From contig OZ237748.1 of NCBI GenBank assembly GCA_965178125.1, positions 1,116,001-1,180,000 on the forward strand: a stretch of DNA of 64,000 nt, read 5' to 3'. A model generated the notes under the pieces. The model did not search any database, had not been told where the DNA came from, and saw nothing but the letters and a program-made list of their open reading frames with translations. Both the position numbers and the translations under genes were made by a program. This DNA comes from Bilabrum cf. latius (taxonomy: Eukaryota). Numbering within the stretch: the first letter of the stretch is position 1; each line of letters begins with the position of its first letter. Below, piece after piece: positions 23,235-60,659 of the stretch.

Positions 23235-23870
23235 CGCTTGGTGTACCTACCACCACCCGTTGTCCCCCCCATCCGCGTGCCGGGTGATACAGATGACCGC
23301 GCAGTCGTCAACGTAGGTACCCATGTCACACAGCTGTTGTGGAGTCACTTCCCGCAGCCGATCCCGGAAGGCCTGATGGAAGCCCCGGCCTAGGGTGCAC
23401 GCAAATGCAGGACTCGAGCGCGAACCCATGGAGGCGGTCACGTCTATCATCGCGACCTGGCCAAACGAACCCCAGACCGCCCCCGCCTCAGTGAGGTCGG
23501 TGGGGAGCAACCGAAAGAACTTGCTCCAGTCCAGCACGAACAACGTGAACTCAGCCGGCTCACCCCGCCGCAGGCACGCCGCCTCCATGGCCCGGAGCTT
23601 GGAACCGAGCACGTCGATGCGGTCCATGACAGCCTCCGCGTACGGCTCCGGGTTGATCTGCCGATTGGGGCCCTGCCGCAGACCCGAGGAGTCAAATGCC
23701 GACATGTCCGTGATGCTCCGGGAACCAGCACCGTGGGCCTTGGGGATCATGATGGTACGACTCGCGCGGCAGCGAGGAGCCACCGCCCCGGGCACCGCGA
23801 TCCGCCACCCGCGGCCAAGGGCCAGACCGCCTTCAAGGAGCTGTTCCCCTGACGCGCTGCCGGAACCACC
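23235..23870 (-). pseudogene. Reverse transcriptase fragment of a second, divergent DIRS/Ngaro-like family
   Basis: IPK..R.ITD.S, VLDWSKFFRLLP, SMGSRSSPAFA and YVDD. Sequence stops shortly after YVDD at the AT-rich element. Confidence 0.8.
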
Positions 23871-24129
23871 ATGGGCCGGGACCGGAGCAGCTTGTGACCT
23901 CTCAACTTCCACATCCGCATGTGGTCGGTGATCCGATCCCCCTGATCCGAGTCACTCGTCACACATGCCCAACCCACACTTGCCCGGCCTGTGCCTCCCC
24001 CTTCCTATCCGCCTCATCAACCCAATGACCCCACCGATCATCTTCTCTTCCACCATTTCCTCCCCCGTTCCGGTGAACCGTGAACCGTCGTCCCCCCCTC
24101 CCTTTGCTCTACCCTCCCCCCCCTAGCTG

Positions 24130-24131
<2 letters not shown>

Positions 24132-24177
<46 letters not shown>
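24132..24177. repeat. (CT)n microsatellite
   Basis: Pure CT run. Confidence 0.95.
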
Positions 24178-24179
<2 letters not shown>

Positions 24180-25079
24180 CACTCCTCCGCATCGCTACGT
24201 CGCATCTGAGCCTGCTCCTCGAGCGGGTCCTGCGCCCACCGAGCGACCTCAATCTCAGAGACCTTGCTGGCCTCACCAACCCACATCCGCATGTGGTCGG
24301 GTAATCCAATCCCATAATCTGAGCCACTCGTCTCACAAACGCCCAAACCCCCACCTGCCAGGCCTGTGCCTCCCCCTTCCAATCCGCCGTATCGACCCGA
24401 TGGCCCCACCACTCATCTTCTCCTCCACTACTTCCTCACCCGCTTTGGTGAACCATCGCCCCCTCCCCATCTGCTCCGCTCTCAACCCCCATACGCTCAC
24501 CCTTCGTCGCCGCCGCTCCTGGTCTGCATCCCTAGCCGCTCTCTCTCTCACACTCCTCCGCATCGCTGCTTTGCATCTGCTCCTGCAACTCGCGCGAGTC
24601 CTGCGACCACCGCTCCACCTCAATCTCAAATACTGTGCTGGCCTCACCAACCAACACGCTGCCATTGGGCGACGGGTTTCCACAGCGTGCTGCCGGCCAG
24701 CCCCAGCCCTCGTGCACAGCCCCTAGGCCAGGACCCATCGCCTGACCCAGACGTGGATCCAGTGGCCCACTCGCCTAGATCGTCGAGCAGCAGCTGCAGC
24801 ACCATTCTCCCGCCCCAACTATGCGAGTCTACATCCGCGTCCCCGACCTGTTCTATGGTACGCGCTACCTATCTATACATCCCCATCCATACCAGATCTG
24901 ATCCAAATCTCAGAACTCCTTCGGATATCACCGCCCTTCTTTCCCACATCCCAGCCCTGTCTGTGCCACTTGTTTCTTCGAATCCACCCACCCTATCCAC
25001 CATGTATTCTTCATCCCTCCTCTTCGACACTTCATATTCATCTCACGCATGTATTGCCTCCAGCGCACAGCCACAGCCC

Positions 25080-26904
25080 TCAACGCCATATGCCCAAGTC
25101 CGCGCCCTGATCCTTCAGCAACGCCTCGCATTCAACGTGCCCACCCCGTACAGCCGCTTCCAAAGCTGTCACACACGTACCAGCATCACCTGAATCACCC
25201 GCCAGCAAATAACCCTTCCGATGATGCCCGCCAGCCAGCTTGCCTAATCGCAGACGCTTGGCCAGTTCCAGAGGCCGGCCCTCGCTCGCTGCTTTAAACA
25301 CCAGCGCTGCATCCCTGTGCGCCTCCATCCCCTACCGCCAGCCCACCACCGCCCATATCCTATCCCGCGGATCTGGAGGTCCTTCCCGTAGTGTCTCACG
25401 ATCCCCTGTGGCCTTGAGGTGGTCGATGATGAGCCGGAGAAGCCGCTGGGGGTTGCCGCGTGCTGATGGCAGCAGTGCTGGCACAAACGATGGTCTGTGT
25501 GGGTAGATAAATAGTTTGAGATCGCCTGGCGGCTCCTGTAGCAAATGCTCGATAGAAGTCCCATCATCCGATACAAAGTCTAATCTAGCACCGGCTTGCA
25601 ACAGATGCATGAGTCCGCTGATGTCTTTGTAGATCTAAGTTAGGACCACCAGAGGGAGGCCAGACTGGGAGGGAACAGGTTAGGTAGAAACAATTGTTGA
25701 GAGGACGATCATCAGCACTGCAATCATGACGCAGCGATACATGTGGTACATACTACTTATGTACCTTGATTCTCACTTTATCTATCCGGTCCGCCGACAT
25801 GCCGTGCTTGAGCAACAGCGGTATCTTGCCGTCAAATGCCCATGGAGCGTATGCTTTGGTCTTCTCAGCCACATGGCAGTCTGGATCTGCCCCTCTGGAC
25901 AGCAAGGTACGCGATATTGCGCCTTTAATTGGCGGTTGACACGATGCAAATTCCAGAAAAGGAGTATCGAAGGGATTGTGCTGTGATAGAGCAGGTAGGG
26001 AAAGAGGCGCAGCGCACGTGCAGCAAAAGCACGTAATCCGTTGTAACTGACAAACACAGCGCATGCCATGCGATGCTCTCACGCTGTTGTCCAGTGGAAC
26101 CCCAGCATCGAGCAGCAATCTGCAAACCTCGGGGGCATCTGTTTTCTTGCCTAGTGAACGACAATTTCGGACTATTCTGTCAGTCTGCGCTCGAGAAAGA
26201 TGTTTCGTTGGCCTCAAATACATAAGACGTATGAAACTTGTTATACACGTCTGAACACACAGCAGGCATGAAACAATACTCCCCTAACTCACCCTCTTGC
26301 ACAGGTTAAGCCCATGACGGATTTGCAGCGCCACGCCCACCGCTCGGCCCATGCTGTACATCACCTGCGGTCTCGTACATGAGCAAATCACTTAGTGGGA
26401 GTTGTTCCATTCTCAACACTCTATTGCACAAACGAATGATCTGCACTCTCACCGGTGGGATCCCCCAGCTGTACAGCAGGCCAAGCACCGATTCAAAGAC
26501 AGAATCTTCGGCACCACGCAGCCAGGCTTCCATGCTCTGTCTCACAGCCTGCATGCAGAAAGAATGCGATTCAAAGCAGGATACCAGCGTGCACAGCTTC
26601 ATAATCAAATGTAAGGATACTATTGCGATTCGGATTCACCTAGTGCGTGAAGTCAACTCCTGCCTCTCGGCAGACTTCCCAGTACGAAAGGGGCAGGTCT
26701 TTGCCACACAAAAACTTAATTGTGAACTGCGGTGATGTAACGGAGACCAATGGACGCTAGAAATTTCAGGACACAGCAGAAAGGTACTGAATGAATGCAA
26801 TGGCAACTCACTGGGGCGTATTGCAGCAGTTCATCAAGTTTGTCTCTGTGATGGCTGACAACCTCATCAAAGCATTTTGCCTTAAGAAGATCCACCAACT
26901 CCAT
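25080..26904 (-). CDS. Multi-exon ankyrin-repeat-like protein, paralog A
   Basis: VCRLLLDAGVPLD, LLSRGADPD, LLQAGARLD, TALEAAVRGGHVEC..LL. GT-AG introns (e.g. GTGAGT donors). In-frame TAG at 25635 and 25332. Exon boundaries not fully resolved. Confidence 0.65.
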
Positions 26905-27411
26905 AAATGGTGGTGTTACGACAAGCAATAAATCACTGGATTAGATTTTGCAAAAATTGTATTGAAGCTGTGAGGGAACGTTCGTCAAACGGAGCCAGAA
27001 TTCCGGAAAGTGTACCCAACTTCAAAATCTCCCCTATTTGGACTAGGCAGATTTTTAGAAAACTAGACCACGGCTGGACTGCCTCATGATCCCACCTCCC
27101 TCTTGGCCCTCCTCAGCGCCTGCACCACCCCCTCAAGGCTCCTCACAGACCATCCTCGCCTCATGATCCCACCTCCCTCTTGGCCCTCCTCAGCGCCTGC
27201 ACCACCCTCTCAAGGCTCCTCACAGACCCGCTTGCCATGCTTCCAGTCATTGAATTCGTCTCGCTGCAGTTCACGATGGTTCTTAGTGTCCTAGCCTCAC
27301 GGTGACTTGGGGCATGGGTCAGTAGCCGGTGCAATCGATAGCTATGCGAGGGGACGATCCGCCGCCGCTGGATCGTCGGGTTAGCATGGATCGTCGGTTG
27401 AGCTGGACACG

Positions 27412-29373
27412 TTGTTCCGCGAGAGGGGTGGGGTTCGATCCCGGTGGGAGAGGGAACAAGCCGAGAAGGATGCACTGCACGGTGGTGCAAGCAGCCCGCA
27501 CCCAGGCCCGGAGGCAGCAACGGAGGCGGGGCGTCTGGCGGGTGCATCGCACGGTGGTGCTGACGGTCGGCAAAGGATTTCGGACGGTTCCGGAGTCTCG
27601 TATGGCGTGACGAGTGCACGCCCCCGCTGGGAGCAGGACGGCCTCACGAGGCAAGAGAGGGAGAAGCAAGCAGAAACAGACCCAGGCGAGAGGAAGGCCA
27701 CCGAGCATCAGAGGCAGGAGCAGGAACAGGAGCAGGAACTGGGGCAGGAACCGGGGCAGGGACAGCCATTGGCTCAATCCCGCTGGTTGCAGCCGCAGCC
27801 GCAAGGTTCTCCGTCCCTGTCCCTGTCCCAGTCCCAGCAGCAGCAGCAGCAACAACAGGAGCAGCAGCAGCAGCAACAACAGGAGCAGCAGCAGCAGCAA
27901 CAACAGCAACAACAGGAGCGGACGCCTGCCAAAGGGGGCGCTAGAGGGTACAGCCCCGCCCCCGTCATGGGGACGCGCCCGTCACACGCTTAGAACTCGC
28001 CGCAATACCGGCAGCAGCAGCAGCAGCATAGCGCGCCCGTTGGTGTGACGAGTGCGGCCCAGATGGTGCTGCCGCGCACCGGAAGCAGCCGGAGCATCGG
28101 GGGCGGCGGTGTGACGAGTGGCAGCCGCATGCCGCAGGGCCCCCGCGTCTACTCGCCCCTCGCCGAGGCTGTGCGGGGGAGCAGCGGTGTGACGAGTGGT
28201 AGCCGCATGCCGCAGGGCCCCCGCGTCTACTCGCCCCTCGCCGAGGCCGTGCGGGGGAGCAGCGGTGTGACGAGTGGTAGCCGCATGCCGCAGGGCCCCC
28301 GCGTCTACTCGCCCCTCGCCGAGGCCGTGCGGGGGAGCAGCGGTGTGACGAGTGGTAATGGGTCGGGCACGGGCAGGTCGAGCGGCGGCGGCAGTCGCTT
28401 TAGCCGTGTGACGAGTGCATCGACCCCTGGGACCAAGCCGTCGCTGGCCGAGGCCGGGCGATCAGCCTCGTCTTCGTCTCTTTCGCGCTCCGGGTCTGGC
28501 CGCGGGCTGGGTGTGACGAGTGGTATCGGACAGGGGCGCAAGCAGCAGCGCAATGTGACGAGTGAAGGGACGGATGTCTCAAAGCAGGCGTCCCAAGGTG
28601 CATCCGCCGGCACCTCACTAGAGATAGCAGCAGCGGCATCATCATCAGCATCAGCATCAGCATCAAGCATGCAGGCTTCCTCGGCCCCTGCCCCTGCCCC
28701 TGGTCCAGCTGCTTCTTCTCCTCCCGCGTGGTCCATCCACCAGTCTAGCTCCACAGGCCTGCTGTACTACCACAATCGTCACACCGGCAAGACCCAGTGG
28801 GACGAACCCGCGGACCTCGACTGCCAGTACGAGGGATGGCAGCTGGCCGTGCTCCGTGTGACGAGTGAGGCGTTCAGGAGGCACGCGATGCCGGCCGCCA
28901 CGGAGCTGCACGCCGCCAGGGAGCGGGTGCAGGCGCAGGAGCGAGAGGCCAAGCGGCTGCAGGAGGCGGCCGAGAGGAGGGCGGGGTACGGTGTGACGAG
29001 TGCTACGGCTGGTGGGGATGTTGCAGGTCGGGCGGGTGCTTCCGCAATAGACGCATCTTCATCTGTGGAAGGTGCATCGCACGGTGGTGTCCCCGGCCGG
29101 TCGGACCGCCTCGTGCTGGAGCACGCGATCCAGGGTGCATCGAACGGCAGCGCACATCACTCGTCACACCACCCCGCTAGATCTAGATCCAGTGGTGAGG
29201 AGGCCCCGTATGACCCCGAGCAGGACGCTAGCTTGTGGAGCGCGCACGAAGACGAGGAGGGGCACCTGTTCTACTACAACGCGAGGACGGACAGGTCGGT
29301 GTGGGAGAGGCCGGCCTGTCTGGGGCCAGTGCCTGCCGGGTATGAGATGGTGGGTGGTGTGGGGGGCAGGTGA
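27412..29373 (+). CDS. Low-complexity protein with two WW domains (start unresolved)
   Basis: WSIHQSSSTGLLYYHNRHTGKTQWDEP and WSAHEDEEGHLFYYNARTDRSVWERP. ORFs 27412 and 28045 are in frame across TAG 27991. Poly-Q tract and internal 78-bp repeat. Ends at TGA. Confidence 0.75.
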
Positions 29374-30694
29374 TATTAGGCCTTGGGGGGAATAGCATCG
29401 TTTCAAGCTGGGATGTACACTTGGAGGCCTTTCCACATCGCAAGTCTTTTATGGCTTGCAAGATATTCTCTGGCACTACCCGTGTGAGCTTTCGTTGTGT
29501 CTCAACACTTCTTCAAACCACCTGTCTCATTTGTTGCAGCGTGCAAGTCGTTCACATCAGTCTATCTCCACGCCTGGCGTGACATGCGACAGACCGGCTG
29601 CTTGTGGTCCAGGCCAGGTTTACCGCCACTTACATACTCTGCATAGCATATCCCTCATATATTATAGACTAAAATCGAATACTACGGGTAGACTTCATGC
29701 AAACGAACTGTTTCGAATGCACTGCGACAGAATTCCACTGAGATACTGCGCAACGGACCTCACCACTCCAGATTTTAGGAATAATATATTCATTAGCACG
29801 TTGTATGCCTGAATGAAAGCTATTTATTCCTAAATGACGTGCAACAATGCATCCAATATCATATGGAGGCCTGGCGAGCGTAAGATTCGATACCATCAAA
29901 TCGGGAAATCGGGCAATGCAACCGTATGCAACCATTTCTATCAGTGGATTGAAAGTATGAAAGTACCAATGAACTCCGTCTGTCGCATGCAATTGATGAT
30001 TTTAGCATATTGTTTCATTTAGGTGCTCCCGATGTGCCAAGGGGTCCCCATCACACGGGAGAACGAGGGAGATCTTTTGCTTGGCAGCCAGGCACGCGCC
30101 GCTGCTGGGAAGGCGGCAAGTTCACGCCTCAGGGGGGTTATATCGGGCGACCAAGAGCAATTCCCTGCTACAAATACTCACAATACTTCATCTAGCTCAG
30201 ATGCTATGGCATTCGAGCAAGTTGCGGCCTGGGGAAGGGCCCGCGAGGGACACAGCGGGTGCGCTTACCTGCATCGCCCCGCAAAAGATACCAGGCCAGC
30301 TTACGCGTTCAACCTGGTGCTTGAAGGATTGTACACGTATGTAGTCGAGATAGGTCCCATGCAGTTCATCAAAGCAGGCTACTTTAGGGATACTCTAGAG
30401 TTTCGAGGCGCTTGGAGGAGCAGTCACAGTCGCCAGCGCTGGGACTTCAAGTGCGACGTGCCGGCCCCGCTCCGACAGTTCGCTTGGAGGACCAGATTAC
30501 CGTGTGAGATTGAAGTATTTCTAGCCATCCTGATATGCACCGCATGTCGCTCCACTAGTATCGTCAATTGAAGAGTCCGACGAGCAACCGGCTGATGGTC
30601 GCTCGTTGTTGCCATGCCTTGCATCGCACCTTAGAAGCCAAGTTTCGATTTCTATATCGCAGCAACTGAGGTTGTACTCGTCGATGCAAATCCA

Positions 30695-32347
30695 GTGTCT
30701 GCAAAAGGCGTGAAAAGGGATATTTTCCCAGTCATTGAGACTGCCAGTACGAGGCAAGGAGTCGATTCGAGCAGCGACGGGGCGGCGGCAGGAGGTGCAA
30801 GCGACGCTGACAGTGTAGGTGGAAGTTCAGTCGATTCGAGCCGCCGAGAAATTGCAGTCGATGGATCGCAGGTGCCGGACCTTCAGTTCACAAGCAGACA
30901 GTGCGCCGCGGAGGGTGACGTGGACCTGATTCGGCAGCTGGTTGCAACCATTTTCTCACGGCGGCACACGGAGATTTGCTCCCTCGCCAACCTGAGCCTA
31001 GAGCAGTACTGCAGCACGCATGGGGGATTTCCAGAAGCCCTCGGAAAACTGCCGAAATCTGACCAGTCCCAGATCTTCGTGCAGCACGTCAAGACTGTGC
31101 AGGTTCTTGTGCGGGCCTCGATCGTGCCAAACTGCGGTGGAAAGGTTGGGCAGCGATGGGACAAGTTCGCCAATTCATTGACTCCAGCGGCAGAGGGCTG
31201 TGGCAGAGCTCCTAAGAAGATGGGTAGGTCTGGACGAGCGAGCAAGTAGGCAGACATACCGCCTCCTGGCGTGAGTAAGTGCCAAAAACTCGGATTGCAA
31301 TACTCGGGACTTGATGAGGACTGGCACCACCAGGAGAAGGAAGGGAAACGCGCCGTAGAACCGGATGGACCTGGTAGCGACGCCGGGGGGTCTGCTGGGG
31401 CGTACAAGACTGGCGGTGATATCGCGGGACCCGCGGAAGGGACAAAATCAAAGCGAAGGGAGGGAAAAGGTGCAGATGAAGAGGCCACCGGAGACGCAGC
31501 AGAACCGGAGAAACAGTCTGAATCAGCGCCAGCACCAGCACCAGCACCAGCATCAGCACCAGCATCAGCACCAGCATCAGCACCAGCACCAGCACCAGCA
31601 CCAGCACCAGCACCAGCACCAGCACCAGCACCAGGAGAAGGGGCAGGAGAAGGGTCAGCCGCAGGACCAGCAGCAGCTAGTGGAGCAGGAACTGGCGAAG
31701 AAGATCCAGATGCACGGACGGATCCGGAGACGTTCCAGTCCTGCCAGCTCCCTCACCCTGACAGAACTCAATTCGGTGTCCCTGGCATCCACGTCAGCAT
31801 GTATGGCCTCGAGAAGGAGATGCACAAGTGGATTAGATTCGCCGGCCTGAAGGCGTTCAAGCACATCTTTAATCTCAAGCCCCCCGACTCGCTGCGTGGA
31901 CTAGACGAGTTCTTCGCAGGGGCGTCGACCGGCAAGAGGCGCAGCAGCGAGGCCGGCGTGATGGCTGCCTGCAAAAAGTTCCACGCCGCAAGCTTTGCGA
32001 ACATGATGTCTCCTATCGATCTGGTAAAGACCGTGAGCGGCAGGAAATTTCGGGAGGTCATTGCAGCCATCCGTGCCGGTAAAGATCACGTCTCAACCAC
32101 AAAGTGGCTACAGCAGGAGGTAATCAATAATTCAGAGGATGATAAGGATCTTGGTATTGGGGCTGATGACAAAGCTGCAGACTAGATCCTTGAAGAGTGC
32201 TCCAATCTGGTGTCTGCATTCGATGTGATTGGCAGAGTGGTGACCCGTCTTCCCATGGCCGGACTGTTCGTGCAGAACGAGAATCGTGAATGGCTGATTG
32301 TGGCAGCGCCTTCCTCGGCAAAGTTTCACAAGTTTATTTTGATTTGA
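30695..32347 (+). CDS. Hypothetical protein with (AP/AS)n linker
   Basis: One frame across TAG 31247 and TAG 32183 to TGA 32345. No recognisable domain; 5' end uncertain. Confidence 0.5.
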
Positions 32348-32360
32348 TGCATGCAGTTGT

Positions 32361-32693
32361 TGATCCTAACGCCGTATGGGGTTCGGTGTTGATGCCAGAG
32401 TGGGAGCGCGTGAACGTCTCGTTGGGTTCCGATGGCGGTTGCGACCGGGAAGGTGCGACCAAGCCAACGGATTGCTTGCGATGACGCGCATACCCTCTCT
32501 GTGTTCAGGAGAGGGGCGGAGATTGGGTACTTTTTGCCCACCCACCCAACCCCCTCCTCCTCGGCGGAGTAGTGCACGTGCTCTTCCCAGCCCCGGTCAG
32601 TCCGGTCAAGGGTCGCGCACAGGCACAGCTTTGTCAGGTCTTGCCATGTCTGATTCATTTATGAGACTAGTTTGCGCGTACCCTCTGGCATCA
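32361..32693 (+). mobile_element. Solo Ngaro A-spacer-B footprint (333 bp)
   Basis: Runs from TGATCCTAAC to GGCATCA, colinear with A2-spacer-B2 of the full copies, with several substitutions. Confidence 0.92.
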
Positions 32694-32717
32694 ATACCTG
32701 TATCTACTTGATAATAG

Positions 32718-32850
32718 ATCAGGGTCATGCGGCGCCATGGTGTCACGCTGTGCGTTGAGACTAGCAATGATATCAAAGATCACTGCATCATTCATGTCAC
32801 ACCGATCAGCTAAATCGGCCAAAGTGACCACAGATTGACCGGCAGCGCGA
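32718..32850 (-). pseudogene. Diverged fragment of Ngaro ORF1 N-terminus
   Basis: GQSVVTLADLADRCDMNDAVIFDIIASLNAQRDTMAPHDPDL aligns with GQPAVTLADLATRYGMNDAVFSDFIARLNVQRDTMAPRDPDL (~16020-16146). Confidence 0.85.
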
Positions 32851-33399
32851 GAGGAGCTCGCCCTGTGCGTTTTGAAGCAGCGCCAGGCGAAATGCGTTCG
32901 CAGGAGACTTTTGGTTACTACTAGGGCAATAAGTACATATACCAGCGTGCATTTGAAATGGCTGATGTTTGCGTTTACCTTCGAGGGTTCAACCTGAGAC
33001 GCACACATCACGATTGCCCTTGGAGCCAGCTGATAGGCCTCTCGAAAAACTTTGCAAGCCGACTCAGAATTACAAAACATCGTAGTACGTGTCTTCTTGA
33101 GCACTGCCGAGATCAGTACCCTTGCGAACCTAGATACGATCAGATCGAATCCGATCGAATACCATAGATACCCGTAATTACCCAGAATATCAGTTCATCA
33201 TCCGATTCGGATATATTCGATTGTGGATTGATCTCGGAATCAGGTGAATAGGAAATTACCCACCATCCTTTCCGGATCAGATCGGATCCCCCAGATCCAG
33301 ATTCCGGAACAGAGAATTTAGTAGATCAGGGCTGGATCCATCAAATCCTAACATCCAGGAAAGCTGAGTAACTCTGGGTGTTCACGATGTGCTACAACC

Positions 33400-35209
33400 T
33401 CAAATATAGTGCATCCCGTGAACACCTAGCAATGCCTCGCATTCAACGTGCCCACCCCGTACAGCCGCTTCCAAAGCTGTCACATACTCACCAGCATCAC
33501 CTGAATCGACCCCCGGTAAACACCCCTTCCGATGATGCCCGCCAGCTAGCTTGCCCAATCGCAGACGCTTGGCCAGTTCCAGAGGCCGGCCCTCGCTCGC
33601 TGCTTTAAACACCAGCGCTGCATCCCTGTGCGCCTCCATCCCCTACCGCCAGCCCACCACCGCCCATATCTTATCGCGCGGATCTGGAGGTCCTTCCCGA
33701 AGTGTCTCGCGATCCCCTGTTGCCTTGAGGTGGTCGATGATGAGCCGGAGAAGCCGCTGGGGGTTGCCACGTGCTGATGGCAGCAGTGCTAGCACAAAGG
33801 ACGGCATGAACTAGTAGCTTAAAACCTTCAGATTGGCAGGCGGCTCCTGCAGCAAATGCTCGATCGAAGTCCCATCATCCGATACAAAGTCTAATCTAGC
33901 ACCGGCTTGCAACAGGTGCATGAGTCCGCTGATGTCTTCGTAGATCTGGGTTAGGACCACCAGAGGGAGGCCAGACTGGGAGGGAACAGGATCGGTGGAT
34001 TCTAGTGATGGCAAGCATAGTACCAGCTTTCCACTCATGGCTAATCGGCACATGAGATACATAATACTCGTGTAATTTGATTCTCACTTTATCTATCCGG
34101 TCCGCCGACATGCCGTGCTTGAGCAACAGCGGTATCTTGCCGTCAAATGCCCATGGAGCATATGCTTTGGTCTTCTCGACCACATGGCAGTCTGGATCTG
34201 CCCCTCTGGAAAGTAAGTTGCGCAATATTGCACCCTTTATTGGGGGTCTACACGATGGGAACTCCAGCAAAGGAGAATCGAACGGGTTGTGCTGCGATGG
34301 AGACGATACATGAGGGCAGGGCACATGCAGTACGACTTGCCCTCACGTTGCAAATGCCAAATACAGCGCATGCCATGCAATGCTCTCACGCTGTTGTCCA
34401 GTGGAACCCCAGCATCGAGCAGCAGTCTGCAAACTTCGGGGGCATCTGTCTTCGTGCCTAAGCAAAGGCAGTTTCGGACAACTGTGTAAGTCTGCGCTTG
34501 AGATATATGATTCGTTCTCCTCACATCCAAAATAAAGGTGAAATATTGGTCTAGTCTAAACACACAGCAGGCATGAAACAATACTCCCCTAACTCACCCT
34601 CTTGCACAGGTTCAGCCCATGACGGATTTGCAGCGCCACGCCCACCGCTCGGCCCATGCTGTACATCTCCTGCGGTCTCGCACATGATTGAGTTACTAGT
34701 TGGGAGTTGTTGCATTGTCAACATTCAATTGCACAAACGAATGATCTGCACTCTCACCGGTGGGATCCCCCAGCTGTACAGCAGGCCAAGCACCGATTCA
34801 AAGACAGAATCTTCGGCATCACTTAGCCAGGCTTCCATGCTCTGTCTCATAGCCTGCTTGCAGGGAGAATACGATTCAAAGCAGGATACCAGCTTGCAGA
34901 GCTACAGAATCAAATGCAAGGATACTCTTGCGATTCGGATTCACCCAGTGCGTGAAGTCAACTCCTGCCTCTCGGCAGATTTCCCAGTACGAAAGGGGCA
35001 GGTCTTTGCCACACAAAAACTTGATCGTTGACTGCAGTGATGTGACGGAGACCAACGGACGCTAGGAACTTCCCGACACAGCAGAAAGGTACTGAATGAA
35101 TGCAATGGCAACTCACTGGAGCGTATTGCAGCAGTTCATCAAGTTTGTCTCTGTGATGGCTGACAACTTTATCAAAGCCTTTGGCCTTGAGAAGATTCAC
35201 CAACTCCAT
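33400..35209 (-). CDS. Ankyrin-repeat-like protein, paralog B
   Basis: Colinear with paralog A; different extreme C-terminus. Confidence 0.6.
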
Positions 35210-47545: not shown

Positions 47546-47721
47546 GCGGATCTGTGGGGGGAGGGCGTGCGGGCGTGCGGGCGATTGGGCGATTGGGAGG
47601 TGTGGTGCAATTGTACCCGGAGCTATGGTGGGTGCATTGCATTGCCTGCGAATACATGGCTGGTGTAGACTCTAATGCCACTGAATATGTATCCAATACT
47701 GAATGCACCCACTGCATCTCG

Positions 47722-50157: not shown

Positions 50158-53100
50158 TCACACCTCAATGGCGCCCGCGCTCTGGGCGTCGTCGAAGCGC
50201 TCGTCCTTCTGGTTGGGCGAAGGCTTGCCCCGGCTGCCACTCGTCACAGTGACGTTCACACCCGCCTTGTCCTTGGGCTCCTCGGCCGCGTCCCCGGCCT
50301 TGCGCATCTGCCTCCACAGCACGAAGGCCGCCAGGGCAAGGAGCCCCACGCCGCACACGGCGATGGCCGCGACCAAGCCGGTCGAGAGCCCGTCATCACC
50401 GTCGCTCGAGGGCCGGTCCAGCAACGCCGCGGCCCTCCCCGCCCCCGACGTCTGCTGGTCGATGGCCACACCGCCAGTGCCGTCCCCCAGCAGGATCTCG
50501 CTGAGAACGGCGTCGGCTTGGATCGACGCGGCCAGGCTCCCGTCCGCCTGCGCACTCGTCACACGGGCCAGGCCGGCGGTCGCCTGCTCCTCGTCCTCGG
50601 CGGTGATGACGATCGTCACGTTGCTGCTAAAGTACACGTCACCCTCGCCGGAAACCTGATCCTGCAGCAGACGCCCCCTCCCGCGCCGCCTGCCCCTCTT
50701 GGACGACCGCACCGTGGCCGAGGTCAGGGGCGGCTCCTCGGCGTCAACTTCTCTGGCGGCCTCGAAGGCCGCTTCCCGGATGACCCTGGCGAGAGCACCG
50801 GCCTCGTCACAGCCCACGATGTCGCTCGTGTCCAGCATCAGGTCCAGCCGCACCACTGGCTGGGTGCCCGGGATGGTGGCCAGGGGAACCAGGGGGGCCT
50901 CGGGGGTGCCCTCGCACTCCTCCTCCTCGTCCACGTCGGCTGGCACCGCCGCCGGCACCACGGTCAGGGCGACCGCGGCGGCCGCAGAGGTCTGCAGACC
51001 CCCGTTGGTGCTCGTGTTCCCCACGGCCCCGGCGTCGGTGACGGTGAACTCAACGGACACTTCCGTCTTCAAGCCCTGGAAGCTGCTCCTGGCGCGGAAC
51101 CCGACGGCCCGCCCGGCTGCCTCCAGCACATCCAGCGACAGGCCGGGGCTCTGGGCGTCGGTCGAAGTCACCGCGAGCGTGCACGAGTCGTTCGACTCGG
51201 CCGACGACGCAGGCCCCGTCCAGACCCCCTGCACCGAGGCGGGCGCGCCCCCCCCCAGGAACAGCTCGTCCTCGGCGGGCCGGCAGCCCGCGGCGACGCG
51301 CACGTCCAGCCTGGCCATCGTGTCGTCGTCCACGTCGGTCAGCGAGATGATGGCCGAGTCACCAAGCAGCGCCACGCCGTCGGCGCCGCGCACGTAGTTC
51401 CCCAGCGGAGCCGCCAGGGCGATCTCCAGCAGCGGGGCCTGGTTGACGTGACGGATCGCCACGCCCCTGCCGACGGTTGCGACCGCGGGGGCGCCGCCGC
51501 TCGCGGCGACGGCGCGTGGGCTCGCGTCGTGCAGCGTGGCTACCACCCGCCTCGCGCCCACGGGGATGGCGGAGCCGGCCATAGACCGGAACCCAAGGCC
51601 TCGCAGTGCCTCCAAAACGGTCGCCAGCGAGCCCTCCTCGATGGAGCCCATGCGACCCCCGTCGGTCAGTGTGACGAGTGCGTCCACGTCGGGGTCCGCC
51701 ACCACCAGCTGGTCTCCTGCCCTGGCCATCTCAATCGTCACATCGGCGCTGATGTTGCGCCCCGTGTCCTGCGCCCGCACCTGCAGCCCCAGGAAGAGCG
51801 CCACGGGGCCGTCCTGCCCCTCCACGAACACGGCCGACTCGGAATCGACCAGGAGCTCGGGAACCCGGTAGTCCAGCAGTACGTCGATCGTGACGCTGTC
51901 CGAGGCAGACTCTTGGTCGCTCTCGTCCACCTGGCCGCGGCTGCCCGTGTCCTTGATCGTCACATCCAGGTGGCGATCACCCGGAGTCATAAACGCGGCC
52001 GAGCTGTTGAAGGCGAGTCCCTCCAGCGCCGTCTGCAGGTCCATCGGCGACATGCCGGCGGTGATGGCGGTCAGGCCGTCCAGGCCCAGCATCAGGCCGC
52101 CCGCACCCCCCGTCAGGTCCACCAGATGGTCTCCCTGCATGGGATCCTGCAGCTCCACCGCTGCCTCCAGCAGCACGTCGTCCGCGTCCGTGAGCATCAC
52201 ACCCCCCAGCAGCTGCAGCGGCATGTGCGCACCCTCGTCATATGTGACCGTTGAGTTCTACAGGGCGATCACGGGCGCCTGGTTGGCCGGGATGATGGCG
52301 ATACTCACGTTGAGGGACGTGGACACGCCCGCCACGCTCCCAAAACCGGCATCCGTCAGCGTCAGCGTGACGGTGCGGGTCAGCGAGGCCGAGTAGGGGG
52401 CGTCAGTCCTGAACTGGAACCCGCGCAGCACCTCCGGGATATCGGCCGTGGCGATGCGCTGCGCCGGGTCGCTGGTGGCAGAGTGCCCACCAGACACGAC
52501 GGAAATGCCCGCGCCGGCCTGGCCCGTGGGTGCCCACACGATGGCGTCGCCCTCCACGGGCTGCTGGATGGCCACGTGCACGTCGTAGCTGCGGGTCTCC
52601 TCGGGGTCGGTCACGGTGACGCCGTCAAAGAGCGTGGGGAAGGGTGCGTCCTGCCCCTCGGTGACTGGGGCCGGGGCGGTGCCCGCCTGGATTGAGTGGC
52701 CGTCGTTGACAGGCGTGATGGCCACGCGCTGCACGAAGGTGGACGTGAGGCTTCCCTCCCCCGCACTGTCCGTCACATTGACCTCGATGCTGCGGCCGTT
52801 CTCGTAGACCTCGCTCGTCGTGAAGAAGCTGACGGCCTCGAGTGCTGCCCCCACCGTGGAGATGTCGCCTCTCGGGATGGTTGCAACCGTGTCGTCCGCC
52901 GAGAGCGCGATGCTGGATCCGGTGAACTCCAGCCGGTCCCCCGTCTGCGGGTTCTTGATGCTCACCACAGCCTAGACCTCGTCGCTGTCGGGGTCCCTCA
53001 GGGCGATGCCCGCCAGCAGCTGCGCCGCAGGGGTGCCCTCCGTGTAGGCCACCGGAGTCGTCACGGCGCTGGCATCGATGACGGGGGCGTCGTTCACCTC

Positions 53101-55123
53101 GACGACCAACACCTTCAGCACGGCGCTCGCCACGGCTCCGTCCGCGTCCGTCGCGTTGATGAGGATGTGACGAGTGGGGCCGCCCGCGGGCCTGTCCTCC
53201 GCCTCGCTGCTGAAGGCGACCGTCCGGAGCGCCGCCTGCGCCGCATCCGCCGCCTGCTCCGCGACCATCGCCATGTGCGAGTCCCCGGACAGCGTGACGA
53301 GTGCGGTGTCAGCCGAGAGCGCGTCCTCCTCCGCGTGAGGCCCGCTGATGGTCACGTTGATGGCCACATCACTGTCGGGGTCCGTGACGTTGACAGCCGA
53401 CAGGATCGGCATAGCTGGCGACCCTTCCCTGTACTCGATGAGATCCTCGGGGACGGCGATGATCGGCACGTCGTTCGTGGGCGTGATGCGGATGGTGATG
53501 GTGACCAGTGTCTCGAGTCCGTCGTTCTCGTCCCGGGACACGAGCGTGAGGTTCTTGGAGGTCTTCTCCGTGCCAGACCGGAACAGGAGCTTGCCGAAGT
53601 CGCCCTCCACCATGGAGTCCGACTGCGGGCCGAATGTGAAGGTGTGGCCGTCCGCCCCCATGACCCGGTGATCACCCAGGGTGCCGGTGTACACGAGCTC
53701 GTCCTGCTCCTCCGGGTCGTCGATGCTCACCACAAGGGTGGCCTTGCCGCCCTCGGGGTCCACCATGTCGAGCCCCGTCAGGAACGCAACCCCGTCCGCT
53801 CCCTCCGTGTAGGCCACGGGGAGCGTCATGCCGGACGTGTCCAGGACTGGGGGGTCGTTGATGTTCGTGATACTCAGCGTGATCTGCGCCGTCGCCGACA
53901 TGCCCGCGAAGTCGGTCGCCGTGAGAGTGATGGTCTTCGAGGCTGACTCCGTGCCAGACCGGAACGAGAGGCTGTCCACGTCCGCGAGTAGCTCGGGGGG
54001 GAATTGCGGGCCGAAGGTGAAGGTGTGCTTGTCAGTCGCCAGCACCCGCATCACCGCAGCACCCGTCGACCCCGTCCACACGAGCTCGTCCTGCTCCTCC
54101 GCGTCGTCGATGCTCACCACCAGGGTCATGTTCTGGCCCTCTGGGTCCGTGACGTTCAGCCCGGTCAGGATAGCCACTGCGTCTGCTGACTCGGTGTAGG
54201 CCACGGGGAGCGTCAGGCCGGACGTGTCCAGGACTGGGGGGTCGTTGGGCGGACCCACGTTGATGATGATGTCCTCATGAACCACATATTGTGCGAAAAT
54301 GTCCGTGAGCGTTATGTGCACGGTGCGGGCCCCCAACTTCTGCCCGGTGGAAGTGAACGTGACCTCTTCGTAGTTCGCAGGTGATCCCATGGTTTGTTCA
54401 TTCCGCTGGTGCATTTCTCCAATTGTAGCATTAACCTCAAACACTGCATCGTCCTCCTCGAGTGTCCAACCCGACGCCATCCCGTTTGAGAATTGCAGCT
54501 TGTCCCCCTCCTGGGCGTTGACAATTTCCGCTCGCAGGCTAAGGTACGCTTTTTCACGCGCGACGACGTCGAGCTTCTCCATGATCGGCAGAGGATCCGT
54601 CTCGCCGGGTAGGAAATTTCGGGTCAGGCTCATCCGGGAGGTGTTCAATGCCGGCATGGGGGGCTTCTTTAAGGTCACGTTGACGTTGATCTCCTGATAT
54701 TTCGATCGGTCGTCATGGTCACTGAACTTAACCTGGTACAGGCGCCAAGTGGGCCGCTGCAGCATTTCTTTCAGCCAATATTTACCTCTTTCCAAATCAA
54801 ATTCAGGATGGAGTAGGACTTGAAACCTAGCTAGGTCCTACAGGAAATCATCCTGATTGTCATAGAGACGACTGCTTACAGCCTCAGCAGTCGGATTATC
54901 GAACAGTGACGAATCGTTGCCTGAAAACTCAATGAGAACCTTCCGCCCACCGAGGAAGGCATCGGGGTACACGGATAGCCTCAGATCTTTCAGCTCGAAA
55001 AGGACCGCTTTTAGCGGCGGCACTTTAGCTTGGGTGCCCTCGGTCTCCACGTGTGTTGGAAACAACGTCGCATTCATGAACGGTCCGTCCGGATTGCGTT
55101 CGGTCGGGTTACCTTGCACCCCC
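50158..55123 (-). CDS. Large type-I membrane protein with tandem cadherin-like repeats (last exon; 5' exons unresolved)
   Basis: ORFs 54838, 52972, 52258 and 50158 are one frame joined across TAG 54838, 52972 and 52258. Repeated NDPPV/NDAPV...Y.EG...TDPD/E motifs and TM helix GLVAAIAVCGVGLLALAAFVLW. CTAAC...CTGCAG acceptor near 55124. Ends at TGA. Confidence 0.85.
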
Positions 55124-56230
55124 CTGCAGAGAAAAATTCGAGTCAACATGTTAGCTTGCGAGTGGCGGTAGGGTAGGGACCAAGTCTGTGCTCTCCGCAG
55201 GAGGAGGAGGACGGCCTGCTCATGCACCAGCTGATTGATTCTGCTGGTTTGCCTTCACCAAGACTTAAAGAGGAATCAACAGGAGGCATACGGGGAAGGG
55301 AAAATGGTATACATGTTTATCACGTTTACGCCTGGAAAAGTCCTGCACGACCACGGCTACGAGTATGTCGGGAAGGCGATAGCCAGAATGTCACGACCAG
55401 GACACGAAAACTGGGCTGCTTGGCCACGATTTGCTCACGAAACGAAGACAAGTGCAGCCCATGCACTTAAAAACACTGATTGTACGAGGTTGCCCGATTT
55501 GGGTCGCATGCTGCTCGCCTACTAGCTGTTTGTCACTAGCGGCCCGGGGCCACCTGGCGCTAGATCTAGAGCCGGACCGACGGCCGGTTTCGAGGTTGCG
55601 TCGGATTTTGGTTAATTCAGATTTCTTGGTCTGCATTTTCGTGAGCCCTACCGAGTGTTGCAGGGCCTTTCTGCCAACTCAGGAACTGTATTAGTAGTTT
55701 TAACCAATACGTGCGTCCTTGTGTCTGCCATGAATCGCGCAGTTAATCCTCGGTTGCTGCGTTTGGGCGAGGCCCTCCGATGGAGCGGTTGGAGGGGGCA
55801 AGTTCCGCGGCCGATTCGGAGGGACCTGAGACATATCTCGGATACCGTACCTGCAATTCGCTTCAAAGTTGGCTCATTGTTTTGTGAGTGCTTGTTGCAG
55901 GGAATTGAGATGCGCATTTGAGCCTCGTGCCTATCGCCGGACCCGGAGGGGGGGGGGGGGCGGAGCAGGGGAACCGCCCACCCGCGGGCTCGTAGATGGG
56001 AAGCGATGCCATCGGGTCCCTGAGCGGAGTAGGCGCGCGGGGGGCGGGGGCCGCGTCGGCCGTGGGGCAGGACCCCTTGCTGGCGGGGCTGCGGCTGCTG
56101 CTGATGCTGCGCGAGGGAGGGCGGGCGGGGGCAGGGGCGGGGTTCGTCCCAATCGGCGCACTGGGCAGTGTTGGCGGGGGACATGGCGCACCTGAGCCAC
56201 CAGAAGGGGGCAGGGAGTAAACGATGCCAG

Positions 56231-56870
56231 TGGTGCAGGGTGGATGGTGCGTGCGCTGGGCCTGGTGCAGGGCGGATGGTGCGTGCGCTGGGCCTGGTGC
56301 AGGGCGGATGGTGCGTGCGCTGGGCCTGGTGCAGGGCGGATGGTGCGTGCGCTGGGCCTGGTGCAGGGCGGATGGTGCGTGCGCTGGGCCTGGTGCAGGG
56401 CGGATGGTGCGTGCGCTGGGCCTGGTGCAGGGCGGATGGTGCGTGCGCTGGGCCTGGTGCAGGGCGGATGGTGCGTGCGCTGGGCCTGGTGCAGGGCGGA
56501 TGGTGCGTGCGCTGGGCCTGGTGCAGGGCGGATGGTGCGTGCGCTGGGCCTGGTGCAGGGCGGATGGTGCGTGCGCTGGGCCTGGTGCAGGGCGGATGGT
56601 GCGTGCGCTGGGCCTGGTGCAGGGCGGATGGTGCGTGCGCTGGGCCTGGTGCAGGGCGGATGGTGCGTGCGCTGGGCCTGGTGCAGGGCGGATGGTGCGT
56701 GCGCTGGGCCTGGTGCAGGGCGGATGGTGCGTGCGCTGGGCCTGGTGCAGGGCGGATGGTGCGTGCGCTGGGCCTGGTGCAGGGCGGATGGTGCGTGCGC
56801 TGGGCCTGGTGCAGGGCGGATGGTGCGTGCGCTGGGCCTGGTGCAGGGCGGATGGTGCGTGCGCTGGGCC
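56231..56870. repeat. 32-bp minisatellite, 20 copies
   Basis: Unit TGGTGCAGGGCGGATGGTGCGTGCGCTGGGCC. Confidence 0.95.
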
Positions 56871-56915
56871 CGGGGCTGCTGGGGCAACTGAGGGCAACCG
56901 AGGTGGGCGCGGGGA

Positions 56916-57693
56916 TGGTGGACCGGTGGGGGCTGGAGGCGCTCGGGTGGATCGAGGCTGTGCTGGTGGACCGGCGGGGGCTGGAGGTGCTCGGGTGGAT
57001 CGAGGCCGTGCTGGTGGACCGGCGGGGGCTGGAGGCGCTCGGGTGGATCGAGGCCGTGCTGGTGGACCGGTGGGGGCTGGAGGCGCTCGGGTGGATCGAG
57101 GCCGTGCTGGTGGACCGGCGGGGGCTGGAGGCGCTCGGGTGGATCGAGGCCGTGCTGGTGGACCGGTGGGGGCTGGAGGCGCTCGGGTGGATCGAGGCCG
57201 TGCTGGTGGACCGGTGGGGGCTGGAGGCGCTCGGGTGGATCGAGGCCGTGCTGGTGGACCGGTGGGGGCTGGAGGCGCTCGGGTGGATCGAGGCCGTGCT
57301 GGTGGACCGGTGGGGGCTGGAGGCGCTCGGGTGGATCGAGGCCGTGCTGGTGGACCGGCGGGGGCTGGAGGCGCTCGGGTGGATCGACGCCGTGCTGGTG
57401 GACCGGCGGGGGCTGGAGGCGCTCGGGTGGATCGACGCCGTGCTGGTGGACCGGCGGGGGCTGGAGGCGCTCGGGTGGATCGAGGCCGTGCTGGTGGACC
57501 GGCGGGGGCTGGAGGCGCTCGGGTGGATCGAGGCCGTGCTGGTGGACCGGTGGGGGCTGGAGGCGCTCGGGTGGATCGAGGCTGTGCTGGTGGACCGGCG
57601 GGGGCTTGAGGCGCTCGGGTGGATCGAGGCCGTGCTGGTGGACCGGCGGGGGCTGGAGGCGCTCGGGTGGATCGAGGCCGTGCTGGTGGACCG
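56916..57693. repeat. 48-bp minisatellite, ~16 copies
   Basis: Unit TGGTGGACCGGYGGGGGCTGGAGGCGCTCGGGTGGATCGAGGCCGTGC. Confidence 0.95.
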
Positions 57694-58979
57694 GGGGCCC
57701 GAGGGCAGGCGGGGAGTAAGGCATGCTCTGGGGCATCACCCCGCACTGATGATGTAGCGAGCATTAATATCAAGCTTGTATTGCTACTTTCAAGTGCTCG
57801 GAAGGGGGTATCCTGTTCGGTCACCCAGATTGTGGACAAGAGGATCAGGAACAATGCTGTGTGGAAGTCGGCTCGCCAATGCTGGCGACTACTACGTCGA
57901 ACGAGAATACAGAAGAAGAATTACGATCAACCACAATTTGGCTGCAGCTGGATTTTCCAACTTAATATCCCAGCTGACAAGTTCCTGCATGCGTGCATGG
58001 TGTGCAGTCGATCCATTGGATACGACCTGAAGCGGTGCGGAGGAATCCGCGACAAGACCAAGGCCCTGGGCATTAAGACCAAGAGAACACTCGGTGCGAC
58101 CAATGTGTCTCGCTACTTTGATGCAGTATGGTTCATCGAGAACTCCGAGTGGTGCATTATGAGCTCCTGCCAAGGCATTGTCTACGTTCTGGACGCGGGG
58201 ACCCTACGAATCATGTACCTACCTTAAGCGTACAAGTGAGGCAAGAAACACCGCAAAAAAGGGGCAGTTGCAAAGGGGCAGTTGCCAAGCAGCTTATGAA
58301 CGGTGCAGCTAGAAGACCCCTGGGGGCAGACAAGCCCAAGAAGCCCCAGTTCATCAGGCGGGCATTCAGGCCGAAGAATGCAACCGGAACCTGGGCATAG
58401 CGTGTGGCTATTGCGGCCGCAGGCCAATGCAGCAGCTTCAGCGAACAATGTGACGGTGGCCGTGTACGCCGATCACAGGCCTGATCCGCACGTGTACAGC
58501 GCAGAAGCGGGGGAGGATCGCCCAGTTGTTGCCCTGCACCTGGCAAGGAACCACTGCCAGTGCAGCCCTTTCTTCGCAGAATAGCCTACGGTGCGTCGAG
58601 TCGTAGATCGACTAGCACGGCCAGGCTCGGCCGCATTTGCATGCCATGTAGTCTGTGGAAGGCATGGTCTGGCCATGAACGCCCAGTATAGCCACCTTAA
58701 GGGTTGTTTTGTGCGTGAATGTGAGCTCGTAGGAGCCTAGAAGATATTGATAGCAATTTGAACAGTGGCTGGTACAACTTTCACGCGTTTTCAGCCCTTA
58801 ACTGGTTACCATTTATCTGATTTTGGCACTTGAGACCTTACATGGCAGGACCCCTGGCACACGGTAGGAGAGGGGTGCGGGTCAGGAATGAATTGCGCGT
58901 ATGTGTGCCTTAAATTTGCTCCGGATATACTGAAAATACTATCATGTACAAGTGTTGCATAGACCTGCAACAGGTTTCT

Positions 58980-60659
58980 TTAGTAGTGGGTCTTCTTATC
59001 TTGGGCATTGCGCACATACTCGAACGCCTCCTCGAACCTGGATCCGATAAGTCCTGCATGGGGCGCATAACACTTTGGCACACCCTCGCAGGTTTCCGAG
59101 TACCAGACAGTACTGCCCGTAGCCTGCTGGCGGAGGTACGCGGCGTTGTGAATTAGCGTCAACATCGAGGGCCCGGGCCACACGTAGGACGAGGCGAGAC
59201 TCCAGATGTATGCCCCGCTGTCCATGTCTACGAGAGCAAGATCTCCCGTGCGGTCGCACTCGTCCCCCGTGATGACGAATGCGCATTTCTGGGCCATTGC
59301 CCGGGTGTTCGAATGCCAACTTCGGGACCCGGAGTTTCTCGTCTCCACCACGTCGCAGTCGTTGCCTACCATCAGAGTGGCCCTGCTATTGCCCCCCACC
59401 CGGAGCGCCTACCCCATGGCCAGCACCTCATCGTCCCACAGAGTGCGCCCCTTGGCGGCAGGTCGCTTGGCGAGCGCCTTTGGATCGCAGCGATGAACTG
59501 ACCAATAGATGGCTTTCTGCAGCACGCCCGTCTTGCGACCATTGCCGAAGGTCTCGTCGTCGTCGGGACTATCCAGGTCCGCCGATCCCGCAGACCACAC
59601 GATCACACCGCCCTGCTGGTGCAGGACGGCATTCCCGTCCCCCTGCAGACGAAGGGTATCTGCACCCGGGTCCATCAGCGAGGTAGGCACCCGCCAGATG
59701 TACTGCCCGGAGGCGCTGTCCACGATGGCCAGGTCGCCCTTGGTGTCGCACCCGTCGCCTGTGATGACGAGTGCGCACTTCCCTTCGGTACCCTTGCCCT
59801 TCGTGTTGGTCGCGAACACCGCTTCGCCCTCTCGGTACACCACCAGGTTGCAGTCTCCCTGCATGCGCAGCTCGGCCCCATCGCCCGCCCTCAAGGCGGC
59901 CCCGGCTCGCAGCACCTGCCTCGGAGACAGCACGTCGCCGTCGGTCACTTGGTGGTACGAAGATTGCATTGATCCTGCATCGCAGTGTAGACTGTGCACG
60001 TCCTCTCGCACCTACAGATCGAAGTGGAACTTCCCTCCCCCCTTCGAGTGGCCCCCGGTGTCGGTGCTCCACAGCAGGTGCGCGCCCTCTTGAAGGAGAA
60101 CGGCATTGCCGTCTCCCTAGACCAGAAACGTGTCCACCTCGGGTGTGAAGATAGACGATCGTACCCGCCAGAGGTACTTGCCCGTATCCGTGTCGATGAT
60201 GGCCAGGTCTCCCTGCATGCTACACGATGCATCCGTCAAGACCAGCGCACAGTGCTCGGGAGGCTCCTCCTTTGTATCCCAGTTGCCGGCGATGAACAGG
60301 TTCTAAGTAGAACCATCTCTAGGTATGACCAGCATGCACTCAGTCGTGAGCCGCACCTCCGTCGAATCCTTGGACAAGGCGTGGGAGGAATGCAGGATCT
60401 CGCCTCTCCGGAGCCTGTCGCCCTCTGCCGGCTTCCTCGCGGCCAAGGCGCTGACGTCGCAGGAGTCTACGTCACCTTTGTTAAGCTTGGCGTCCAATAA
60501 TTGGATGTCGCGGCTCTGGTGCCTGCTGCTGGCGTGGACCGAGGCCTACGAGAAAGAGCCAGCGCTGCGAAGGTGCTGCTGGCCTGCTGCTCGTCGCCCG
60601 TGCACACTGAGTGGCGAACAGGCGGCGATAGCTACCAGAATAGAAACGATTGATCGCAT
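58980..60659 (-). CDS. Secreted protein with three bulb-type (B-)lectin-like domains
   Basis: Signal-peptide-like MRSIVSILVAIAAC. MQGDCNLVVY and LQGDGNAVL match QxDxNxVxY. One frame across TAG at 60546, 60303, 60117, 60012 and 59409. Ends at TAA 58980-58982. Confidence 0.85.

Follow-up and report, generated by a model that had tools for sequence, protein, structure and literature searches.

The window analysed here, a stretch of 64,000 nucleotides of contig OZ237748.1 (assembly GCA_965178125.1, positions 1,116,001 to 1,180,000), has a GC content of ~60% except in an AT-rich block (~35% GC) at 4.0-16.0 kb, and carries a series of genes whose reading frames contain TAG codons. An initial annotation had proposed that these reflect a nuclear genetic code in which UAG is read as glutamine while UAA and UGA remain stops, and it is this code that is examined below. 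A three-domain B-lectin gene with a signal peptide (58980-60662, minus strand) has five such codons (TAG 60546, 60303, 60117, 60012 and 59409) and ends in a TAA at 58980-58982; it is recognised by Pfam B_lectin with 29.6 bits, and monocot mannose-binding lectins match it at E 2.5e-10. The last large exon of a cadherin-like membrane protein gene (50158-55122, minus strand) has three (TAG 54838, 52972 and 52258) and closes with a TGA at 50158-50160, and an Ala/Gly-rich conserved gene, here called HEAT-like (43279-45979, minus strand), has TAG 45938 and a TGA end. The frame of a WW-domain protein (26974-29373, plus strand; Pfam WW, E 2e-17), likewise terminated by TGA, includes TAG 27991, which adjoins a run of glutamine codons (YR-TAG-QQQQH). 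Read through TAG, the open lengths come to 1,698 codons with 3 TAGs for the cadherin-like gene, 587 with 5 for the lectin and 799 with 4 for the WW protein. A three-copy gene family on the minus strand consists of paralogue A (25060-26990; TAG 25635 and TAG 25332), paralogue B (33380-35300; CAG 33946 and TAG 33643) and paralogue C (36210-38110; CAG 36786 and TAG 36483). All 14 of the TAG codons listed so far, and the three CAG codons at 59643, 33946 and 36786, had been named in the initial annotation, and every one of them was found on the strand given there.

Two conserved genes of the window are free of TAG. PSMB5 lies on the plus strand as exon 1 (46173-46286; MAMSAALIARPSRKGLDGVEAERDPEATGRFVLPSVAD, kept in the related contig L001 described below) and exon 2 (46754-47545; Pfam Proteasome, 174 bits; 0 TAG, TGA end), and the eL28 (RPL28) gene (49111-49623, plus strand; Pfam Ribosomal_L28e, 62 bits; 0 TAG) also ends in TGA. 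A TAG previously placed at the head of the PSMB5 frame falls inside the intron (46287-46753) and is not coding; the notion that TAGs are intron sequence holds solely for this TAG upstream of PSMB5 exon 2. Some of the functional labels first attached to the other genes are weak. The HEAT-repeat gene matches no Pfam family (it has an orthologue in L001), the ankyrin label (E 0.05) falls below the cut-off, and so does the cadherin-like label (Cadherin_4, 19.8 bits against a cut-off of 25.1). Pfam also returned no family for the 583- and 984-codon frames or for ORF1 of the retroelement described below.

Frame statistics were compiled over nine coding segments backed by homology or transcripts, 5,682 codons in total. 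The reading frame of these segments contains 21 TAG, 0 TAA and 0 TGA, against 18 TAG, 5 TAA and 105 TGA in the first off-frame and 28 TAG, 14 TAA and 69 TGA in the second. TAG is therefore as frequent in frame as off frame whereas TGA and TAA are purged, as is expected of stops. Two of the 21 in-frame TAGs probably lie outside true coding sequence, namely TAG 46058, which precedes the probable first residues (MPKSRG) of the HEAT-like protein, and TAG 3231, at the changeover to the recombinase frame in the cut copy of the retroelement, leaving 19. Coding potential was followed as GC content at third codon positions (GC3) over 60 codons, which is 0.7-0.95 in genes and ~0.5 outside; it stayed level across all 11 TAGs tested (for example 0.93 to 0.88 at 52972). 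TAG makes up roughly 7% of the presumptive glutamine codons in supported frames.

Contigs of four public runs (X1, X5, X6 and X7; 12 hold the stretch) were aligned to positions 42000-56200. X1 is a DNA run, and the other three have the properties of transcript assemblies: on eL28 the contig depths add up to 2,462 versus ~14 in nearby bins, X5 has a loose end of A's behind 49815, 190 nt 3' of the RPL28 TGA, and a joint with GT..AG ends (46286>46754), which defines the PSMB5 intron, is present in X6 and X7 and absent from X1. Record 14 of X5 is made up of 53656-53829 and 54217-55122, with a joint at 53829>54217, and continues at 55438 across a second junction (55122>55438) whose CT..AC ends correspond to GT..AG on the minus strand; TAG 54838 lies inside this spliced record with 0 differences, and record 21 of X6 spans the same TAG, also with 0 differences. 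TAG 45938 is spanned by X6 record 15 and X7 record 23 with 0 differences at low depth. The retention of TAG in spliced or transcript contigs argues against its removal by splicing or editing at 54838 and 45938, the two sites at which transcript-like contigs of this region bear on the question. Contigs of X1, which may be the source data of the assembly itself, agree with the window without differences at 54838, 45938 and 52258, as expected if these TAGs are not assembly errors. One base of the window, 45332, is absent from the covering contigs of X1, X5 and X7, and X6 is without that gap; leaving it out turns two overlapping frames into the single HEAT-like gene, and the base is probably a one-base assembly error. 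The DNA run also contains, at comparable depth, a second copy of the cadherin-like gene, ~5% diverged (corresponding to window 51881-53652), whose summed depth in the transcript-like runs is ~10-fold higher (585 vs ~60), a poor measure of expression.

A search with the PSMB5 protein led to L001, a metagenome contig of 4,753 bases that is syntenic with the window (end of the WW gene, then the HEAT-like gene, then PSMB5), at ~78% DNA identity and 91-92% identity for the PSMB5 protein. Its HEAT-like orthologue is a single frame in which 444 of 855 aligned residues are identical to those of the window, and which includes 12 TAGs, 9 of them in the aligned part and at sites differing from those of the window. 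The PSMB5 gene of L001 has an in-frame TAG at L001 position 4627, followed by conserved sequence matching the window and then by TGA; the window codon opposite this TAG is CAG 47411. A standard-code protein prediction from L001 (P0005, 240 aa) ends exactly at the PSMB5 TAG. That conservation continues beyond an in-frame TAG in a housekeeping gene of another species is hard to reconcile with a pseudogene or an assembly error. The database homologues of the lectin (P0129, P0140, P0126 and P0139) are fragments of 58-185 residues that tile the window protein, which is the expected output of a standard-code gene caller on a gene with in-frame TAGs.

TAG codons are also frequent in a tyrosine-recombinase (Ngaro/DIRS-like) retroelement, which is present on the plus strand as one copy cut by the window start (1-4650) and one full copy (15714-22380). 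This Ngaro-type element has at least 15 in-frame TAGs, and the full copy is organised into ORF1 (15895-17931; 7 TAG), a pol frame (17932-21681; 6 TAG) and a recombinase frame (20538-21875; 4 TAG), each with a TGA end. Across 4,651 bases the two copies show 99.76% identity, with 6 mismatches and 2 gaps, and have in common five in-frame TAGs in the reverse-transcriptase/RNase H part and four in the recombinase. Such near-identical copies suggest that the retroelement has been active recently, and such activity would require translation through TAG. Frame statistics, coding potential, a TAG in a spliced contig, retroelement copies with the same TAGs and the TAGs of L001 together make it well supported that UAG is a sense codon in this genome.

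Between the two retroelement copies lies an AT-rich integrated virus-like element (4651-15713; ~35% GC; no strand assigned) with six open reading frames (ORFs). These include an integrase with rve and chromo domains (6253-7620, minus strand), two related small ORFs (7657-8337 and 9393-10031, minus strand), a likely tyrosine recombinase (8375-9352, minus strand) recognised from motifs by eye and with no Pfam match, and a primase-helicase (Herpes_ori_bp/PriCT_2; 12776-15841, plus strand). No capsid gene was seen within 4651-15713. None of the six ORFs contains an in-frame TAG and none ends in TAG, a pattern of avoidance compatible with adaptation to the host code, although six ORFs cannot show adaptation. 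A GC-rich repeat of 170-330 bases, with copies 97-100% identical, occurs at 4314-4493, 12882-13049 (inverted), 15714-15893, 22042-22221 and 32361-32693; two copies flank the full retroelement, the inverted one sits within the beginning of the primase-helicase frame, and the copy at 32.4 kb is isolated.

The identity of the remaining stops was assessed from the ends of nine genes, six in the window and three in L001, a small sample for judging the non-use of UAG as a terminator. TGA ends eight of them (5 + 3), TAA one and TAG none. As the initial annotation had it, TGA terminates PSMB5, RPL28, the cadherin-like gene and the recombinase frame and TAA terminates the lectin; the WW and HEAT-like genes add two further TGA ends in the window. 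GC3 drops after each of the five TGA ends tested and, past the lectin TAA, falls from 0.68 to 0.43; the lectin homologue fragment P0139 ends no more than 4 residues from that TAA. In the AT-rich element, where TAA is frequent (693 on both strands of 12 kb), five of the six ORFs end in TAA and one in TGA, with no internal TAA in ORFs of up to 1,021 codons. A scan of the window for TAA flanked by long open frames returned antisense frames of known genes only. UGA is clearly a stop, given its place at eight of nine gene ends, its exclusion from reading frames and the GC3 drop after each TGA end tested; UAA is probably a stop as well, and the rarer terminator, as indicated by the lectin end, the absence of in-frame TAA, the ORF ends of the AT-rich element and the scan for flanked TAA. 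The earlier statement that both codons remain stops is thus upheld for UGA and probable for UAA, which has one host gene end.

These data bear directly on an alternative in which UAG and UAA would both encode glutamine as in ciliates and Hexamita (NCBI table 6), UGA would be the sole stop, and TAA would be rare simply through GC-richness. UAA and UAG are usually reassigned together (PMC5304391; PMC11687900), and the predominance of TGA at gene ends (8 of 9, a single host gene ending in TAA) is in keeping with such a code. We nevertheless consider it unlikely, as TAA is missing from the 5,682 codons that hold 21 TAGs when usage on the pattern of CAA (CAA:CAG 62:228) would predict ~5-6, the lectin TAA is followed by a fall in GC3 and has the end of P0139 within 4 residues, and the ORFs of the AT-rich element use TAA at five of six ends and never internally, common as TAA is there.

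To identify the amino acid, we examined all TAGs for which a non-identical homologue was available, 13 positions in the window and 10 in L001. Glutamine stands opposite TAG at 5 of 13 window and 2 of 10 L001 positions, or 7 of 23 in all. One case had been pointed out in the initial annotation and holds: TAG 60117 occupies the Q of the lectin sugar-binding motif QxDxNxVxY, for which lectin domain 2 has CAG 59643, and lectins in the PDB align their own motif Q to this CAG. A second internal alignment proposed at the outset, of EVLAMG[TAG]ALR with DVLSPRQVLR, is not reproduced, as MAFFT sets TAG 59409 against A and H in the other two lectin domains; glutamine at this site is recovered instead through the homologue P0126, in which TAG 59409 faces the Q of LAMG-Q-SLR at 75% identity. 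The third, within the paralogue family, was reproduced, with TAG 25635 of paralogue A facing CAG in both B (33946) and C (36786), and TAG 25332 of the same paralogue is retained in all three copies (33643 and 36483). In the retroelement, TAGs 1167 and 2433 face Q in P0125 (58% identity). The two L001 TAGs that face a window Q are the PSMB5 site and one in the HEAT-like protein (LRTCEA-Q-SKGT). In conserved contexts, glutamine alone is found opposite TAG more than once; TAG columns are enriched for it in the sense that the 7 of 23, a small sample, include every well-conserved context. On these alignments UAG likely encodes glutamine.

Part of the evidence pulls the other way and is best considered together. 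Residues other than glutamine face 16 of the 23 compared TAG positions: TAG 60546 faces S in P0129; the retroelement TAGs 2031 and 2046 face P and A in P0125; three other TAG columns of the paralogue family face TAT, CCA/CCG and TCG/CCG; TAG 52258 faces CGG (Arg) in the second cadherin-like copy; TAG 45938 faces G in L001; and the other L001 TAGs face D, R, G, K, G, G, R and G, within the low-complexity HEAT-like protein. In a three-domain MAFFT alignment of the lectin, TAG 60303 faces V/R, 60012 faces D and 59409 faces A/H. The column of the L001 PSMB5 TAG has K in 76 and Q in 16 of 121 homologues. With regard to the frame count, the segments were initially bounded by TAA and TGA, a source of bias in the counts, although their extents are fixed by homology or transcripts. 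The RNA status of X5, X6 and X7 is a guess; none of them is recorded as RNA, and X5 is flagged as probably DNA. The case for UAA as a stop draws, for host genes, on a single gene end and the lack of in-frame TAA, and the sample as a whole comprises 64 kb and one 4.7-kb contig of a relative.

The mismatched residues, above all the 16 of 23 positions, the lysine-rich PSMB5 column and the arginine in the diverged cadherin-like copy, are what would be expected if UAG were a sense codon with another meaning (Glu, Lys, Leu, Ser, Tyr or Trp, assignments of the sort known from some ciliates, a rhizarian and Scotinosphaera) or were read ambiguously. This, too, we regard as quite unlikely. No other residue recurs in conserved contexts, and all five G lie in the Gly-rich HEAT-like protein, while glutamine faces TAG wherever the context is well conserved (the lectin motif, LAMG-Q-xLR, the retroelement PR-Q-T, LRTCEA-Q-SKGT and, for PSMB5, the closest orthologue); a single transition, moreover, separates TAG from CAG, as seen between the paralogues. 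Very unlikely indeed is a standard code in which the TAGs are nonsense mutations of pseudogenes, intron sequence, edited sites or assembly errors, for although the window copy of the cadherin-like gene is ~10-fold less covered in the transcript contigs than its diverged twin with CGG at one TAG, the paralogue family and retroelements could be decaying, one TAG lies in the PSMB5 intron and the window has at least one single-base error (45332), only TAG interrupts the frames (21 versus 0 TAA and 0 TGA, with off-frames averaging 87 TGA), no frameshifts occur besides the 45332 error, the spliced contig retains TAG 54838, DNA contigs agree with the TAGs of the window, and in the other species PSMB5 remains conserved beyond its internal TAG.

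A nuclear code in which UAG specifies glutamine and UGA and probably UAA are stops (NCBI table 15 type) is therefore the reading we hold with good confidence. The initial proposal is supported by frame statistics, coding potential, the spliced contig, L001 and the glutamines in conserved contexts. Nuclear genes of this organism would be translated with UAG as a sense codon for glutamine, with UGA as the usual terminator and UAA as a rarer one. Such use of UAG would extend to ordinary host genes and to an apparently recently active retroelement, and the trait would be common to at least one related species, known from a metagenome contig alone. By analogy with other UAG-reassigned lineages, UAG would be decoded by a tRNA-Gln(CUA), one anticodon change from tRNA-Gln(CUG), and eRF1 would have lost recognition of UAG while still reading UAA and UGA. 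ARAGORN found no tRNA genes in the window or in L001, L013, L015 or L041, Rfam gave no matches in the window and L001, and no eRF1 or rRNA genes lie in the 64-kb window.

Several other features of the host DNA were noted. The end of the WW gene and the end of the HEAT-like gene are separated by ~150 bases in L001 (363-519) versus 14 kb in the window (29373-43279), where the intervening stretch consists of the paralogue family and repeats, which suggests an insertion or expansion specific to this lineage. Long tandem arrays occupy GC-rich DNA at 55615-57735 (including 56242-56870), 47700-48100, 38706-39300 and 28099-28357. A 12-mer, GTGTGACGAGTG, is present in 25 exact copies at window positions 23953-51680 (for example 28043, 43425, 44520 and 50553) versus 0 expected. 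Every copy lies in host DNA, the majority in sense orientation within genes (9 of 10 for the WW gene, 7 of 7 for the HEAT-like gene). The 12-mer translates as V-T-S in the 17 sense copies listed and once as C-D-E (43712). Transcript contigs retain GTGTGACGAGTG, which argues against a tiny intron or a splice site; L001 has no copy, and a literature search for the 12-mer returned primers only. Another motif, GGTGCATCGCAYGGYGGTGC (translated GASHGG), is likewise in frame, with three copies in the window (27546, 29076 and, on the minus strand, ~45470) and three in L001 (171 and two on the minus strand). In the alignment of the HEAT-like orthologues, two L001 copies of GGTGCATCGCAYGGYGGTGC stand opposite the window GTGTGACGAGTG copies at 44520 and 43712, and the lengths of both motifs are multiples of three.

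The taxon had been considered impossible to determine from the window, a view that PSMB5 now revises by pointing to a stramenopile near Cafeteria. In a PSMB5 search the best named match was Cafeteria roenbergensis at 75% identity, and 10 of the 12 other named matches used in the tree are stramenopiles, the remaining two being Artemisia and Durusdinium. The single-gene tree groups the window with L001 (100/99), joined by three further sequences (100/96), and places this group weakly beside Blastocystis (84/82); an enclosing, weak group of 13 rows (81/81) also has Cafeteria and the dinoflagellate Durusdinium. Placement through PSMB5 is thus to the stramenopiles in a weak tree, and eL28 contributes nothing to it, its search having returned three matches, none with a taxon name. 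From this gene the source would tentatively be a non-ochrophyte, non-photosynthetic stramenopile related to Cafeteria, and the 75% PSMB5 identity to Cafeteria would make it another genus.

Reassignment of UAG alone to glutamine is known from the fornicate Iotanema spirale, from Protocruzia tuzeti and from two phyllopharyngean ciliate clades (PMC11687900, PMC5304391); UAG is read as leucine in the uncultured rhizarian exLh and some ciliates (PMC11687900) and as serine in the green alga Scotinosphaera (PMC11687900). Both UAA and UAG (UAR) encode glutamine (table 6) in many ciliates, Ulvophyceae, Hexamita, Streblomastix and Amoeboaphelidium (PMC11687900, PMC5304391). The code described here resembles that of I. 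spirale in the codon concerned, its new meaning, the (here probable) retention of UAA as a stop and its occurrence in a non-ciliate protist (PMC5304391, PMC11687900), but Iotanema belongs to the unrelated supergroup Metamonada and has had its cognate tRNA and eRF1 examined. It shares with P. tuzeti and the two phyllopharyngean clades the same UAG-only variant, which has arisen independently several times (PMC11687900), although those are ciliates with macronuclear genomes and PSMB5 here points to stramenopiles. With the UAR codes it has in common a stop-to-glutamine change involving UAG; those codes reassign UAA too, whereas here TAA is absent from 5,682 codons and ends one gene, and Amoeboaphelidium is excluded as the source by its GC content of ~40% (PMC10608142) versus ~60%. 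As in exLh and Scotinosphaera, UAG would be uncoupled from UAA in a nuclear code (PMC11687900), with a different amino acid from the leucine and serine of those lineages.

Like Cafeteria burkhardae, the window has an AT-rich integrated virus-like element beside tyrosine-recombinase retroelements; endogenous virophages of C. burkhardae invaded by Ngaro retrotransposons are cited in a Halocafeteria preprint (10.64898/2026.07.28.741278). Halocafeteria seosinensis itself is excluded as the source by its host GC content of 47% and its lack of Ngaro elements according to that preprint. No variant code in Cafeteria came up in our literature searches. For stramenopiles and bicosoecids the literature found, which leaves most subscription journals outside, contained no variant nuclear code and only mitochondrial or plastid cases. 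The suggestion that this might be an unreported case accordingly still stands, as the searches found no nuclear UAG-to-Gln change in stramenopiles, and the finding is supported as a further UAG-only glutamine code in a lineage for which no reported case was found. A broader interpretation, which we advance tentatively and regard as somewhat more doubtful than not, is that a clade of at least two Cafeteria-related heterotrophic stramenopiles independently reassigned UAG alone to glutamine, that this would be the first nuclear stop reassignment in stramenopiles, that mobile elements followed the code, and that the integrated virophage- or polinton-like element avoids TAG altogether, in which case the code might act as a barrier or filter against incoming viruses.

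Cases in which UAG is uncoupled from UAA are few, and each independent one tests how eRF1 tells UAG from UAA as well as the capture of a stop codon by a mutated tRNA-Gln. The genome in question is GC-rich, so that rarity of TAG from mutation pressure is not expected. As the organism is apparently cultured, with DNA and transcript data and a relative sharing the trait, the tRNA, eRF1 and the timing of the change should be directly testable. Gene callers that apply the standard code truncate the proteins of this lineage, as in P0005 and the lectin fragments, so annotations and phylogenomic sets will contain errors until the code is specified. The virus-like element and the retroelements nearby form a natural experiment on the adaptation of parasites to a changed code.

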